Shown: piece after piece, positions 3,485-13,817 of the stretch
How the letters are laid out: the number at the start of each line of letters is the position of its first letter
Position numbering within the stretch: position 1 is the first letter of the stretch
DNA from: Candidatus Nanopelagicales bacterium
GTDB taxonomy: Bacteria > Actinomycetota > Actinomycetes > S36-B12
Reading direction: 5' to 3'
NCBI GenBank assembly: GCA_032117435.1
Contig: JAULZJ010000048.1
Location: forward strand, 1-34,255
Length of the DNA: 34,255 nucleotides
Made by a program: the position numbers and the translations under genes
Notes under the pieces: generated by a model
The model's input: only the letters and a program-made list of their open reading frames with translations
Told to the model about the DNA's origin: nothing
Databases searched by the model: none

Positions 3485-6019
3485 ATGAGCGCGCACCTGC
3501 CGGACCTGCCCGGTCTCGACCCCGCCTGGTCTCGCCGCGTGGACCTTGGCGAAATCGCGATGCACGTGCTCGAGCGCCCGGCCCTCGGCACTGCCGCCCT
3601 CACTGTGCTCGCGGTGCACGGCAATCCGACCTGGTCCTACCTCTGGCGGCGCCTGCTCGCGACTGCGCCGGCCGATTGGCGGGTCATCGCGGTCGACCAG
3701 ATCGGCATGGGCTTCTCCGATCGCCCCGATGGCATGCGCCGCCTCGCGGATCGGGTGACTGATCTCGGCAGGCTTACCGAGGCACTTGCCGTCACGGGTC
3801 CGGTCGTCACTGTCGCGCATGACTGGGGCGGTCCCGTCTCGCTCGGCTGGGACCTGGTGCATCGGGACCTGCTCGCGGGCGTCGTGCTCGCCAATACCGC
3901 GGTCCACCAGCCCGCCGGGTCACCCGCTCCGACGCTCATCCGGCTCGCCCGCTCGCGCCCTCTGCTGGAGGCCGTCACTCGGCGTAGCTCGACATTCCTG
4001 CGCGGCACCACGTGGATGTCACGACGCATGACCCCGGATGTGGCGCGCGCCTTCCGCGCGCCGTACCCAGACCGGGCGAGTAGGCGCGCCATCGGCGACT
4101 TCGTGGCGGACATACCCCTGTCCCCCGATCATCCGAGTGCGGCCACGCTCGACGGAATCGCAGAGGGCATCCGTTCGCTCGACGTGCCCGTGCTCCTCGC
4201 GTGGGGCGCCGACGACCCCGTCTTCTCCGATCGCTACCTGCGCGACCTGCGCTCGCGCATGCCACACGCCGACATCCACCGGTATGAGGGCGCCCGCCAC
4301 CTGGTCACCGAGGATGCCGAGAGCTGGGTCGAGGACGTCATCGCGTGGATCCAGGCGCGAGTGCTCCGCGAGGTGCCACCCCGTGATCCTGGCGACGATT
4401 CCGTGATCCCAATCGGCCAAGCCCTGGACGACAGGTCCCGCGACTCGGATGTGGCCCTCGCTGATCTGCGCTCGGATCGGCGCGTGAGCTGGGCGATGCT
4501 CGCTGCCCGCACCCGGGAGATCGCCGCGGGACTCATCGACATGGGCGTCCGCACCGGCGATCGTGTCGCGCTTCTCGTGCCCCCCGGCGCGGATCTCATT
4601 GCCTGCGTCTACGCCGCATGGCGCATCGGTGCCGTCGTGGTCGTCGCTGACTCGGGGTTGGGAGTGCGCGGCATGCGTCGCGCACTGCGCTCCGCGGAGG
4701 CCACGCACGTCGTGGGGATTCCCGCGGGGCTCGGCCTGGCGCGCACCCTGGAGCTGCCGGGAGTGCGCATCCTCGTGGGGCGCACCGGTCCCGCCACGCG
4801 CGTCCTCGGCGCGGATGCCTCGCTCGCCGAGGTCGCCCGGCGTGGGCGCGAGCATCTCGCAATCCGGGATCTGCCCCCGGCGCCGCCGGCGGAGGCGGAT
4901 GCGCTCGTCGCCTTCACTTCGGGGGCGACCGGCCCCGCCAAGGGCGTCGTCTACACGCACGCCCGCCTGGCGCACCTGCGCGATGCGCTGCGGGCGGCAT
5001 ATGGCATCGGCACGGATGACGCGCTCGTCGCTGCCTTCGCCCCCTGGTCGGTGCTCGGCCCCGCGCTCGGCATTCCCTCGGCGATCCCGGACATGGACCT
5101 CACCGATGCGAGCACGCTCACCGCCCGCGCCCTCGCTGACGCGGTGGGTGCCGTCGACGGCACCCTGGCATGGGCTTCGCCGACCGCGGTGCGCGCGGTG
5201 GTCGACTCCGGTGACCACCTCGACATGCATGAGCAGCGTGCGTTGGACAGCCTGCGCTTCCTGCTGGTCGCCGGTGCCCCGGTGCCGGTGGACCTGCTCG
5301 AGCGAGCTGCTGCGCTCCTTCCGAGTGCGACTCTCGCTACGCCGTACGGCATGACCGAAGCCCTGCCCCTGACCGAGGTGACGCTGCAGGAACTCCGCGA
5401 TGCCGTGGGCCTGGGTGTGCTCGTCGGGCGTCCACTCCCGGGCGTGGAGATCGACATCGCCGGCCTCGATGCCGCGGGCACCCCCGCGGAGCAGTTGGGG
5501 ACGGCACCGGGGGTGACAGGCGAGATCGTCGTGCGTTGCTCGTGGATGCGGGACAGGTACGACCGCCGCTGGGCAACTCAGCACCGGGCTGGCTCGCCCG
5601 AAGGCTGGCATCGCACCGGCGATGTCGGTCACCTCGACGACGAAGGGCGGCTCTGGGTCGAAGGACGCCTTGCTCACGTGCTGCTGTGCGCTGACGGACC
5701 CGTGACCCCGGTGGCAGCGGAACTCGTCGCGCAGCGCGCCGCCGGGGTGCCGCTCGCGGCACTCGTGGGAGTGGGCCCCCCGGGCGCCCAGGTGCCGGTG
5801 GTCGTCCTGCAGTCGCCGGGGCCCGCGCTGGGACTCGCTGAATCGGCCCTCACCCAGCGCGTGCGCGAGGACGTGCGGCGCGAGTCGGGCCTGGATCTCG
5901 CTGCTGTGCTCACGATGCGGTCCCTCCCGGTGGATGTGCGTCACCGGTCCAAAGTCGACCGCCTGCGGATCGCGCGCGAGACGAGCGACTTCCTCCAGGG
6001 AGCGCGCGGAGATGGCTGA
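3485..6019 (+). CDS. oleBC: Fused OleB (alpha/beta-hydrolase beta-lactone decarboxylase) and OleC (AMP-dependent beta-lactone synthetase)
   Basis: The N-terminal ~290 aa carry haloalkane-dehalogenase-like motifs (HGNPTWSYLWR, VAHDWGG). The C-terminal ~540 aa carry the adenylate-forming motif FTSGATGPAKGVVYTH. The start lies 13 nt after the oleA stop. Confidence 0.85.
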   Translation: MSAHLPDLPGLDPAWSRRVDLGEIAMHVLERPALGTAALTVLAVHGNPTWSYLWRRLLATAPADWRVIAVDQIGMGFSDRPDGMRRLADRVTDLGRLTEALAVTGPVVTVAHDWGGPVSLGWDLVHRDLLAGVVLANTAVHQPAGSPAPTLIRLARSRPLLEAVTRRSSTFLRGTTWMSRRMTPDVARAFRAPYPDRASRRAIGDFVADIPLSPDHPSAATLDGIAEGIRSLDVPVLLAWGADDPVFSDRYLRDLRSRMPHADIHRYEGARHLVTEDAESWVEDVIAWIQARVLREVPPRDPGDDSVIPIGQALDDRSRDSDVALADLRSDRRVSWAMLAARTREIAAGLIDMGVRTGDRVALLVPPGADLIACVYAAWRIGAVVVVADSGLGVRGMRRALRSAEATHVVGIPAGLGLARTLELPGVRILVGRTGPATRVLGADASLAEVARRGREHLAIRDLPPAPPAEADALVAFTSGATGPAKGVVYTHARLAHLRDALRAAYGIGTDDALVAAFAPWSVLGPALGIPSAIPDMDLTDASTLTARALADAVGAVDGTLAWASPTAVRAVVDSGDHLDMHEQRALDSLRFLLVAGAPVPVDLLERAAALLPSATLATPYGMTEALPLTEVTLQELRDAVGLGVLVGRPLPGVEIDIAGLDAAGTPAEQLGTAPGVTGEIVVRCSWMRDRYDRRWATQHRAGSPEGWHRTGDVGHLDDEGRLWVEGRLAHVLLCADGPVTPVAAELVAQRAAGVPLAALVGVGPPGAQVPVVVLQSPGPALGLAESALTQRVREDVRRESGLDLAAVLTMRSLPVDVRHRSKVDRLRIARETSDFLQGARGDG

Positions 6020-7022
6020 TCGCATCGCGGTCACCGGGGGATCCGGAGTGGTCGGCGGCGCCGTCGTCAGGGCATTGCTCGGACGAGGCGACGCGGTCGT
6101 CGCCGTCCAGCGCGGACCGCTGCCGGATGCACTGCGCTCAGCGGGGGCCGAAGACAGGCAGGCCGATGTCGCGGGCCCCGTGGCTGCCCTGGTCGGCGCC
6201 TTCATGGGCTCCTCAGCCGTCGTGCATGCGGCCGCGCGCGTCGACATCGTCGGACCCTGGAGCGATTACGAGCGGGCGAATGTCATCGGCACGCGCCAGG
6301 TGCTCGATGCTGCTCGCCGTGCGGGCGTGCGACGCTTCGTGCTTGTGTCTTCGCCATCGGTGGCACATGCCGGGTATGCCCTCGTCGGTGCCCGCGCTGA
6401 GAAGGCTGATCCGGACAATGCGCATGGCCACTACTCCCGCAGCAAGGCGATGGCGGAGGTGATTGCGCTTTCCGCGGACAGCGATGACATGGCCGTCACT
6501 GTCGTGCGGCCGCATCTGGTGTGGGGTCCCGGCGACACGCAGCTCACCGAGCGCATCATCGATCGGGCGCGCAGCGGTCGATTGGTGACGATCGGCGGCG
6601 GCTCGGCTCTCATCGACACGACGTACATCGACAACGCCGGTTCGGCCATTGCCGCCGCGGTCGACCGGGCGGCGCATGCGGATGTCCGCGGCCGTGCCTT
6701 CGTCGTATCCAATGGCGAGCCTCGCACGGTGAGCGAGATGCTCACTCGGATCGCCCAGGCTGCCGGCGCCCCGGGTCCCACGCGCAACGTGCCCTTTCCC
6801 ATGGCCCGGATGGGCGGGCTGGTGCTCGAGAGGCTGTGGGAGCGCACGGGGCGCGAGGGGGAGCCGCCGGTGACCGCCTTCCTCGCCGAGCAACTGGCCA
6901 CGGCGCACTGGTTCGACCAGCGCGAGACGCGCACCGCCTTGAATTGGGCCCCCGATGTCAGCCTCGACGAGGGCCTTCAGCGGCTGGCCGCGTGGCTGCG
7001 CGGCGTGGCTGCCTCATCCTGA
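6012..7022 (+). CDS. oleD: OleD, an NAD(P)H-dependent 2-alkyl-3-ketoalkanoate reductase of the 3-beta-HSD/extended SDR family
   Basis: ATG at 6012 overlaps the oleBC TGA (ATGGCTGA). Rossmann motif IAVTGGSGVVGG and catalytic YSRSK are present. The track start at 5934 would overlap oleBC by 86 nt and add a non-Rossmann extension. Confidence 0.8.
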   Translation: MADRIAVTGGSGVVGGAVVRALLGRGDAVVAVQRGPLPDALRSAGAEDRQADVAGPVAALVGAFMGSSAVVHAAARVDIVGPWSDYERANVIGTRQVLDAARRAGVRRFVLVSSPSVAHAGYALVGARAEKADPDNAHGHYSRSKAMAEVIALSADSDDMAVTVVRPHLVWGPGDTQLTERIIDRARSGRLVTIGGGSALIDTTYIDNAGSAIAAAVDRAAHADVRGRAFVVSNGEPRTVSEMLTRIAQAAGAPGPTRNVPFPMARMGGLVLERLWERTGREGEPPVTAFLAEQLATAHWFDQRETRTALNWAPDVSLDEGLQRLAAWLRGVAASS

Positions 7023-7035
7023 GCCCATCGGGGGC

Positions 7036-7293
7036 TATAAAGGACGAGACCCCTGGAAGTATGAGTTCCAGGGGTCTCGCCACGGATCGCACCTACCGGT
7101 CCCGCGAAGGGAAGTCGGGGGCGTCGCCCCTCCTCCGTCGCACCCGTTGCCGGGGCGCCTCCGGTGCGGCTTTCACCGCTTCAGTCGATCCCGAAGCTCC
7201 GGTCCCCCCCGCGACACCGGGGTGGGGAGTTGCCTCCGATCTCGTCTTGCGACGCGACCTCCGCTGCTCCGGCCGCTCAGTTTCCCTCGCGAC
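7036..7293 (-). ncRNA. Candidate structured stand-alone RNA, class not recognised
   Basis: On the minus strand there are four GNRA-capped hairpins: CGUC-GCAA-GACG (7254-7243), GGAG-GCAA-CUCC (7237-7226), GCGGU-GAAA-GCCGC (7179-7166) and CCCG-GCAA-CGGG (7154-7143). A possible closing helix pairs GCGAGGGAA (7290-7282) with UUCCCUUCGC (7113-7104). CGGAGG occurs four times. A terminator hairpin with a U-rich tail follows. No credible coding frame is present. The ends are approximate. Confidence 0.45.
7044..7080. terminator. Strong hairpin that could terminate oleD (+) and the candidate minus-strand RNA
   Basis: GAGACCCCTGGAA-7 nt-TTCCAGGGGTCTC is a perfect 13-bp stem, extendable to 15 bp. On the minus strand it is followed by CCUUUAU. 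The plus-strand side has no U-tract. It begins 22 nt after the oleD stop. Confidence 0.7.
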
Positions 7294-7406
7294 AAGTTAG
7301 TTCTATTCCCTCAGTGCAAGGCTGCGCAAGAGAGTGTCGGAACATTTTCCAAAAACTTGACCATCAACAGTCACACGCGAGCGGATTGACCACACGGACC
7401 ACGTCT

Positions 7407-8366
7407 GTGACCGCCGAGGCGGTCGACCCGTACCCTCGGAGGGTGCCTTCGCTGACCTCACTTCCCCGCCGGCCTGCCCACGGCTCCCTGGTGTACCTCC
7501 ACGGTGTCGGCGGAGTTCGGGACGCATGGTGGCGCCCGGTCACGCGGACGCTGGGGACGCTCGACGTTGAACTCTCCGCACCCGCCTATGACGACCTGCT
7601 CACCGGCTCCGGTGCCGTCTATGCACGTCGAGAGGCGTGCGCGGTGATCAGCGTGACGGATGATGCGCGTCAGGCCTATCTCGCGCGGCAGCAGCAACTC
7701 GCGGATCTGGTGGAGGGAATCGGCGAATCGACGGCACTCGCGTGGCCCGCGAGTCTCCCGCATCCCGCCGACATAGCCGAGAGACTCCCGCTGACGCGCG
7801 TGCTACGTGCCCCAGTCTTCGGTCTCGACCAGGTTGGTCGCTACCTCGACGACACGTCCCGCAGGGCGGCGGTGCTCCATCGGGTGACATCAGCGGTGCT
7901 GCGCGCACCGCGACCGCGCGTGGTCGTCGCGCACTCGCTGGGATCGATCGTCGCGTGGGATCTGCTCACCGATCCGCGGATGGAGATCGACCTCCTCGTC
8001 ACCCTGGGTAGCCCGCTTGCCCAGTCGGCCGTGACGGTGGAGGAGATGCCGTTCCCCTATGGTCGCGTCGGGGCCTGGCTCAATGTCGTGCACCTGCTGG
8101 ATCCGGTCCCCGCGGGCCGAGGGCTCAGGGAATTCTTCCCCGCTGCCTGTGATGCCTTCCTGCCTCCCCTCAGCGGCGTGGGTTCACCGGCGAGTGGGAT
8201 GTCCCGGCTCGCTGCTGCTGTCGCGGGCGCGATGGCAGCGCATCTCGATTCGACGTACCTCGCCTCGAGCACGGTGCAGGCGGCGATCCGCGACGCGCTG
8301 CAGTCGCCGGTCGCCACCATCCCCGGGGGCGGATACGGCCCGCAGTTCATCGAGGTGGCGTCATGA
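7407..8366 (+). CDS. Alpha/beta-hydrolase (lipase/esterase-like) protein of unknown specificity
   Basis: The strand-then-turn segment GSLVYLHGVGG is followed by a nucleophile-elbow-like VVVAHSLGS. Candidate Asp (LLDPVP) and His (AAHLDS) follow in the canonical order. The start is uncertain: GTG 7407 or in-frame GTG 7443. The track start at 7164 is rejected. Confidence 0.6.
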   Translation: MTAEAVDPYPRRVPSLTSLPRRPAHGSLVYLHGVGGVRDAWWRPVTRTLGTLDVELSAPAYDDLLTGSGAVYARREACAVISVTDDARQAYLARQQQLADLVEGIGESTALAWPASLPHPADIAERLPLTRVLRAPVFGLDQVGRYLDDTSRRAAVLHRVTSAVLRAPRPRVVVAHSLGSIVAWDLLTDPRMEIDLLVTLGSPLAQSAVTVEEMPFPYGRVGAWLNVVHLLDPVPAGRGLREFFPAACDAFLPPLSGVGSPASGMSRLAAAVAGAMAAHLDSTYLASSTVQAAIRDALQSPVATIPGGGYGPQFIEVAS

Positions 8367-13744: not shown

Positions 13745-13817
13745 CGCCCCCGGCAGGATTCGAACCTGCGACCTTCGGTACCGGAAACCGGCGCTCTATC
13801 CCCTGAGCTACGGGGGC
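13745..13817 (-). tRNA. tRNA-Arg (anticodon CCG)
   Basis: The minus strand reads GCCCCCG-TA-GCTC-AGGGGATA-GAGC-G-CCGGT-TTCCGGT-ACCGA-AGGTC-GCAGG-TTCGAAT-CCTGC-CGGGGGC-G. It has a perfect 7-bp acceptor stem and 5-bp T arm, a TTCGAAT loop, U33 and G37. One C.A mismatch sits at the top of the anticodon stem. CCA is not encoded. Confidence 0.9.

Follow-up and report, generated by a model that had tools for sequence, protein, structure and literature searches.

To our knowledge, Actinomycetes have no 6S RNA that can be recognised, and conservation of their small RNAs seldom reaches past the genus. The papers on Ms1, an actinobacterial RNA that binds the RNA polymerase core, describe it as flanked by an oxidoreductase gene and, at its other side, by a gene for CpaE or for an HAD-IB hydrolase ('inhibition of morphological differentiation'), and the published Ms1-candidate genera include Phycicoccus, Pedococcus and Microlunatus. 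Further classes of RNA that bind RNA polymerase are held to exist in actinobacteria without 6S or Ms1 (PMC11077062).

Here, we examine a locus in a 2.6-Mb, high-G+C metagenome-assembled genome (MAG) of a freshwater or wastewater member of the Nanopelagicales, class Actinomycetes. The window, by which we mean the whole 34,255-nucleotide (nt) stretch of DNA that was analysed, very probably carries a genuine small RNA (sRNA) gene on its minus strand at 7293-7036. This gene and its neighbours are arranged as follows.

3485-6019: oleBC fusion upstream of the RNA locus, coding for an 844-aa OleB-OleC protein with alpha/beta hydrolase and AMP-binding domains
5934-7022: oleD, a 3beta-HSD/epimerase gene convergent with the RNA gene
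7036-7293, minus strand: primary transcript, with a predicted length of about 258 nt; 7032-7298 scores 267 bits with the covariance model
about 7443 (start): PGAP1-like alpha/beta-hydrolase gene on the downstream side, followed by a DUF2252 gene
13745-13817, minus strand: tRNA gene, the sole match at the Rfam gathering score in the whole window

Positions 3485-7022 form an olefin cluster of the actinobacterial style, oleBC then oleD; the listed oleD open reading frame overlaps the 3' part of oleBC by 86 nt, and its real start is probably more 3'. The RNase P gene of the genome lies on contig C5 and the tmRNA gene on contig C18. BLAST searches identified 20 loci of the same genus (69-91% identity), in which the RNA region always lies between an oleD-like gene and a hydrolase gene.

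The original prediction could match this RNA to no class, and our searches bear that out. A comparison of positions 6950-7480 with Rfam 15 gave nothing at the gathering score and only noise at E<=10 (miRNA and CcsR1, E>=0.09). A Mycobacteriales-type member of the family likewise gave only noise, and 12 other loci gave nothing at the gathering score. The covariance model of the raiA motif (RF03072) had no match in the window region, and literature searches, with the terminal-hairpin sequence in the open literature and with keywords, found no description of the RNA. The RNA is alike raiA motif, OLE, ROOL and GOLLD RNAs in being widespread, highly structured and extremely abundant; it differs from them in having no Rfam match, a far less conserved body and a variable number of simple hairpins.

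6S RNA, which binds the sigma-A/sigma-70 holoenzyme and templates pRNA, was considered and rejected. Its model (RF00013) was unmatched at E<=10 in 6950-7480 and found nothing in 25 whole genomes of the order, and the fold is of another kind: the 5' end forms a local, covarying hairpin (H1, below), and no end-to-end helix surrounds a central bubble. Like 6S RNA, this RNA stands alone, measures about 200 nt, has a strong promoter and belongs to the most abundant non-ribosomal RNAs, and it is present where 6S is undetectable. Unlike 6S RNA, it matches no model, forms no rod with a central bubble and has its 5' and 3' ends in separate local hairpins.

Ms1 was rejected as well. In blastn comparisons of Streptomyces coelicolor Ms1 (PMC9130861 supplement) with 95 family members and the whole genome, the best E values were 0.13-0.5. 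No HAD gene was seen beside the RNA; its neighbours are the oleD-like 3beta-HSD and PGAP1-like genes here and TGT, GT2, metG, Usp and CoA-transferase genes elsewhere. With Ms1/MTS2823/scr3559 it shares an actinobacterial host, high abundance and short hairpins at the two ends with a structured region between them, and in the genus it adjoins an oxidoreductase-type gene. It differs in its lack of similarity to S. coelicolor Ms1, in its terminator and in having no HAD-IB neighbour, and it shares genera with Ms1 candidates: Phycicoccus, Pedococcus and Microlunatus carry the RNA family studied here as well.

Two looser likenesses deserve mention. CsrB/RsmZ sponges also combine repeated short hairpins and similar loops with high abundance, and tandem copies occur here in some genomes; in this RNA, however, the loops are generic stable tetraloops (GNRA, and UNCG in some lineages) and not a shared protein-binding ANGGA motif. 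We know of no CsrA-like partner in Actinobacteria. With antisense recognition loops and tRNA anticodon arms, the RNA shares a 7-nt Y-U-N-R loop, which matches the CAU anticodon loops of its own genome at all but one of seven positions; unlike these elements, including the ThrRS operator as an anticodon mimic, it carries that loop on a 16-bp terminator-like stem.

The transcript is predicted to start near 7293, as placed by the -10 box, and to end past the terminal hairpin and a short U tail. Along it, the following elements were found.

7272-7293, minus strand: H1, the 5' hairpin, GUCGC-GA-GG-GAAA-CU-GA-GCGGC; double changes in 6 of 7 pairs (helices 1 and 2)
7238-7259, minus strand: H3, GGUC.CGUC-GCAA-GACG.GAUC; double changes in 5 of 6 pairs (helix 4)
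7226-7237, minus strand: H4, GGAG-GCAA-CUCC, with a GCAA or GAAA loop; double changes in 3 of 4 pairs (helix 5)
7207-7222, minus strand: H5, CCCCG-GUGUCG-CGGGG; double changes in 4 of 5 pairs (helix 6)
7166-7179, minus strand: H6, GCGGU-GAAA-GCCGC, with a G-U pair possible on the minus strand only
7139-7157, minus strand: H7, the best-conserved block of the body, CGC.CCCG-GCAA-CGGG.U.GCG; helix 8 is 99.4% paired
7118-7130, minus strand: H8, GGGG-CGACG-CCCC; helix 10 is 90.6% paired, with double changes at 2 pairs
7101-7111, minus strand: H9, CCC-UUCGC-GGG, capped by GCAA or GAAA in divergent species
7043-7081, minus strand: terminal hairpin of 16 bp with the 7-nt loop CUCAUAC (7065-7059); double changes at 9 pairs (helix 12)
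7032-7042, minus strand: 3' tail CCUUUAUAGCC, which overlaps the opposite-strand oleD stop codon in many relatives (alignments)

Sequence features reported in the original prediction are all present at the positions it gave, and their interpretation stood up unevenly. The four GNRA-capped hairpins that it described are real and are conserved with compensatory changes, but the count was too low, since at least six hairpins carry such caps. Its terminator hairpin, put at 13-15 bp and 7080-7044, proved to be a 16-bp stem at 7081-7043 with nine double-change pairs and an invariant loop. The proposed long-range closing helix (7290-7282 with 7113-7104) fell away: 57% of its cells are paired, which equals the shuffled controls, its covariation is zero, and one of its strands lies in H1 and the other in H9. 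A short closing helix is possible at 7262-7260/7086-7084. The repeated CGGAGG hexamer is overrepresented in the window, with four copies against 0.5 expected (one of 1,000 shuffles reaches four), but it is lost outside the closest relatives; family-wide, GGAG is mildly enriched, at 296 observed against 248 expected.

The hairpins vary among relatives at their loops and closing pairs. The loops of H1 (across relatives) and H6 (in the genus) read GAAA, GCAA or GUAA; the closing pair of H6 switches between C-G and U-G, and that of H7 is swapped from G-C to A-U and C-G. U-A/C-G swaps occur in H9 (helix 11) in 11 of 24 sequences. The GUGUC/GUGAC loop type of H5 is seen again in other orders.

Conservation and covariation in relatives, which the original prediction had named as a check, yielded strong compensatory change in the hairpins of nineteen same-genus homologues. 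RNAalifold, run on a minus-strand MAFFT alignment of the genus, returned 66 pairs, and 30 of these show compensatory double changes. A covariance model was also used to align 24 sequences drawn from four genera; both partners differ in 34 of 59 pairs of that alignment, where fitting to the model favours structure and with which the independent MAFFT/RNAalifold result agrees. Its cells were paired at 95.7% against 83% after shuffling, and double-change cells numbered 156 against 41, falling to 9-24 when the registers were slid by 1-3 columns.

Several of these measures also distinguish the strands. G-U/U-G outnumber A-C/C-A combinations in paired cells by 83:15, an excess that places the RNA on the minus strand. 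GNRA-capped hairpins number 333 in the sense and 35 in the antisense orientation family-wide, and the z-score of the minimum free energy against shuffles is -4.1 for the minus strand and -2.1 for the plus strand. The minus strand had been proposed as the sense strand at the outset, and the G-U bias and the GNRA loops uphold that choice. The earlier view that the region lacks a convincing coding frame also holds: overlapping open reading frames have no Pfam match, and indels among close relatives are not multiples of 3.

Upstream of the predicted start, on the RNA strand, lie the following elements.

7299-7305, minus strand: -10 box TAGAACT, with T41, A42 and A44 invariant in the genus alignment; the same box occurs across orders
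7324-7329, minus strand: -35 element TTGCGC, conserved within the genus
7345-7362, minus strand: A/T-rich, UP-like element with a GGTCAAGTTTTT block, 5' of the -35 element and kept in all same-genus loci
7386-7394, minus strand: single DnaA-box-like site, TGTGGTCAA on the RNA strand and TTGACCACA on the plus strand, with one mismatch to TGTGGACAA

The two promoter elements are spaced by 18 nt (TTGCGC-18-TAGAACT, 7329-7299, minus strand). Conservation singles out TAGAAC(T) at 7305-7299 as the -10 element, and not the hexamer TAACTT (7299-7294) that was first put forward. A TTGYGN-N16-19-TAGAAM pattern precedes 95 of the 137 hairpins of the family, across many orders, and comparable A-tracts stand 5' of the -35 element in other orders too. 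Judged by these motifs, the RNA gene has its own, predicted strong promoter of the housekeeping type, preceded by an A-tract.

DnaA-box-like sites (TGTGGACAA, at most one mismatch) recur farther upstream. The 250 nt 5' of the promoter hold a mean of 1.36 sites per locus against 0 and 0.04 in two control stretches, and 28 of 67 loci of other lineages have at least two upstream of the promoter; no control stretch has two or more. Clusters of 2-4 sites stand 5' of the sRNA promoter in about 40% of family loci (L057, L059, L061, L065 and L099 among them). Such clusters may reflect control by DnaA or a locus that titrates DnaA, and whether DnaA boxes are linked to a small-RNA promoter is directly testable. 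An oriC, which the sites also suggested, was rejected, the flanking genes being neither dnaA nor dnaN. Between the promoter and the hydrolase gene, several relatives (L009-L012) carry a perfect palindrome, TTGAGTCA-CACA-TGACTCAA, together with repeated GTCAC(A/T); the palindrome and repeats look like a putative operator, and the counterpart in the window (7363-7400) is degenerate.

We next turn to environmental RNA. DNA metagenomes contain the full 1.3-kb stretch, and metatranscriptomes contain words of the RNA region only: about 7% of 139 words sampled over the long stretch were recovered from metatranscriptomes, against 27-41% of 22 words from 7030-7300. Assembled contigs, which are unstranded, from four RNA runs (one from oil sands, one from a river and two from freshwater) were mapped on 6700-7700, with one segment covered.

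7096-7291: segment seen in metatranscriptome assemblies, the sole covered part of 6700-7700 in the four RNA runs

Depth was zero in these runs over oleD, the terminal hairpin and the downstream hydrolase gene. Summed word depths over 7096-7291, unscaled to tmRNA or RNase P, were 7,500 in oil sands, about 289,000 in the river and 670 and 260,000 in freshwater, and one run has contigs identical to the window. At these unscaled depths, the RNA ranks with the most abundant transcripts that these bacteria make in nature, at a level usual only for housekeeping RNAs. The uncovered terminal hairpin may either be trimmed off the mature RNA or resist random priming on its 16-bp G+C-rich stem. Some short contigs retain adaptor remnants, which place fragment ends near 7279/7280, 7239 and 7092-7100; the orientation of these remnants in two runs fits a minus-strand RNA if the libraries are of the dUTP type, which is weak evidence.

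In one metatranscriptome, two contigs, one otherwise identical to the window and one with 4 mismatches, skip 12 nt at 7165-7176, the 5' half of H6. This skip is probably a reverse-transcriptase jump over a stable GNRA hairpin and not a variant allele.

With its own conserved promoter, its covariation and a discrete transcript in metatranscriptomes, the locus bears out the earlier reading of an autonomous structured RNA. That RNA is also widespread. The covariance model matches 104 of 301 genomes of the order, in 19 of 47 genera. In other genera, the body diverges and the terminal hairpin is near-constant (GGCCCCU-NNN-A-CUCAUAC-U-NNN-AGGGGCC). A search with this hairpin pattern, one genome per species, found it on at least 119 contigs with the loop CUCAU(A/G)C. 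Among the matches listed are Nanopelagicales, Propionibacteriaceae, Microlunatus, Nocardioidaceae, Frankiaceae, Jatrophihabitantaceae, other Mycobacteriales MAGs, Pedococcus, Phycicoccus, Longivirga, Streptosporangiaceae and one Streptomycetales MAG. An even sample of Actinomycetes had the hairpin in 60 of 401 genomes and 36 of 175 genera, while the reversed pattern, used as a control, matched once; in every match in those 60 genomes, the three stem positions that vary were complementary. Large-genome Streptomyces-like families in the same sample had no hairpin, and the other classes of the phylum had none in about 149 genomes. The RNA gene is conserved from streamlined freshwater plankton of the acI type to soil and wastewater genera.

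Taken together, these features define a provisional family: a TTGYGN-17/18-TAGAAM promoter, a GNRA hairpin at the 5' end, a series of hairpins with tetraloops and, at the other end, the hairpin CCCCU-NNN-A-CUCAURC-U-NNN-AGGGG, all four of which are found in the window. The family is spread over many orders of Actinomycetes and absent from Rfam 15, and on follow-up would provide a new abundant RNA class to annotate across thousands of genomes and metatranscriptomes. Predicted lengths are 177-193 nt in Propionibacteriaceae and Mycobacteriales-type members, 235-280 nt in Nanopelagicales and about 440 nt in Pedococcus. GCAA (163) and GAAA (70) dominate the GNRA loops, with a median of three per RNA, and the body in Phycicoccus has UUCG/CUCG loops in place of GNRA. 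H1, the H4-H5 pair and the last GNRA hairpin recur across orders. MAG records named Bifidobacteriaceae, Actinomyces sp. or Rubrivirga sp. (L063, L069, L121, L129 and L130) carry an sRNA of the Nanopelagicales type, at up to 285 bits with the genus model; these are probably mislabelled or contaminated bins.

Neighbouring genes change with the lineage. A convergent oleD-like gene is found in Nanopelagicales, a GT2 gene in Pedococcus and Phycicoccus, metG downstream in one Mycobacteriales MAG, and Usp and CoA-transferase genes elsewhere. No neighbour is universal, the commonest occurring in 18 of the at least 119 loci listed, which points to a function in trans. In one group of genera, the queuosine genes tgt (PF01702) and yhhQ/Vut_1 (PF02592) lie divergent and upstream of the sRNA at L040, L139 and 14 other Nanopelagicales loci, and at L058 and 9 others.

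What might such an RNA do? Across orders, its body ranges from 177 to about 440 nt and differs in hairpin number and loop type, and sequence is kept only in the terminal hairpin. Only the terminal loop and the adjacent stem appear constrained in sequence across orders, making them the likeliest functional surface. The loop, CUCAURC, has the YUNR layout of a U-turn, and its CUCAUAC form agrees at six of seven positions with CUCAUAA, the loop of the genome's three CAU tRNAs. As an intrinsic terminator, the hairpin has a 16-bp G+C-rich stem followed by a tail of just UUU-A-U, and a consensus terminator scan made no call. It nonetheless appears from its form to double as the terminator facing oleD, and the invariance of its loop would go beyond what termination requires.

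We consider the best overall explanation, with a probability of about 0.5, to be a stable, abundant, trans-acting RNA that would present an invariant U-turn loop to a conserved partner, most likely a titrated protein. In the mode of action that we propose, the RNA would act in trans by offering its CUCAURC loop to a conserved partner in the cell, its chain of hairpins would form a scaffold that resists nucleases, and the RNA would titrate or carry a conserved protein in the manner of 6S, Ms1 or CsrB, RNA polymerase being one candidate. Its extreme abundance suggests such stoichiometric binding. We put this mechanism forward tentatively, at somewhat less than even odds; loop conservation could also serve termination, processing or stability rather than the binding of a partner.

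Among the alternatives, one that we regard as possible though doubtful is that the RNA is a functional counterpart of 6S, Ms1 or CoRP, binding RNA polymerase (core or holoenzyme) and tuning transcription in slow-growing cells. The RNA has the size and abundance of polymerase-binding RNAs and is kept in streamlined acI-type genomes, RF00013 is not found in any of the 25 genomes of the order, and further RNA classes of this kind have been proposed for actinobacteria (PMC11077062). Its architecture speaks against this, with a local 5' hairpin where an end-to-end helix fails and no rod with a central bubble, as do the missing similarity to S. coelicolor Ms1, the missing HAD-IB synteny and the presence of the RNA in the Ms1-candidate genera Phycicoccus, Pedococcus and Microlunatus.

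The terminal loop might instead act by base pairing, kissing GUAUGAG or GCAUGAG (which contain AUG) at the starts of target mRNAs and so blocking or altering translation. A YUNR layout is typical of antisense recognition loops, and GTATGAG is rare in the genome, with 47 sites, two of them at plausible start codons. Seven nucleotides give little specificity, however, and the abundance is far above the usual need of catalytic or antisense regulators. The complementary site at the best candidate, a homocysteine methyltransferase-like gene, is not kept in relatives and does not co-vary with the A/G variant of the loop. No complement of the loop occurs in the tmRNA, RNase P RNA or tRNAs of the genome. 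We judge such regulation unlikely, and a base-pairing role less likely than protein binding.

The resemblance to CAU tRNAs raises another reading, in which the hairpin mimics an anticodon arm as a decoy or ligand for a reader of CAU anticodon loops (MetRS, TilS, an anticodon nuclease or the ribosome). In addition to the six matching positions, the sole variable loop position is always a purine, like tRNA position 37, and in some lineages the gene adjoins tgt and yhhQ or lies immediately 5' of metG. Yet about 1 in 16 random 7-nt loops fits the generic anticodon-loop rule, the 16-bp stem has no tRNA features and the suggestive neighbours are lineage-specific, which leaves mimicry quite improbable. 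That there is no RNA gene at all, only an oleD terminator plus a plus-strand promoter and leader of the hydrolase gene or a decayed coding sequence, is scarcely credible: a plus-strand frame (7164-8366) is open across the region and tblastn alignments reach into it, but the G-U pairs and GNRA loops are asymmetric between strands, indels are not multiples of three, Pfam has no match, RNA contigs stop at 7291 and 7096 with both flanking genes excluded, and the same RNA occurs elsewhere beside unrelated neighbours.

In a bolder reading, the RNA would be the missing global riboregulator of Actinomycetes without 6S, a housekeeping RNA linked to replication and controlled via DnaA boxes, whose invariant CAU loop, resembling an anticodon, would titrate a core translation or transcription enzyme and so couple growth state to gene expression, including in the dominant freshwater acI/Nanopelagicales bacteria. 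We regard this reading as a long shot. Follow-up of the RNA would yield a candidate global regulator in ecologically dominant bacteria. Cultured carriers exist in Pedococcus, Phycicoccus, Microlunatus and Longivirga, which makes experiments feasible.

Copy number varies among genomes. Tandem sRNA genes, with 2-3 copies 370-580 nt apart, were observed at several loci (G318:C1:1890434-1891502; G631:C132:6231-6622; G561:C1:10119-10632; L077, L101, L151 and L156), and genomes with two copies often have one of about 219 nt and one of about 260 nt. In Phycicoccus sp. Soil802 (L055), the roughly 350 nt 5' of the terminal hairpin consist of near-identical repeat modules in which GUCACCUCGGUGAC hairpins are joined by a CCCGCACGUGGGAAG linker, a pattern that suggests growth of the RNA by internal duplication.
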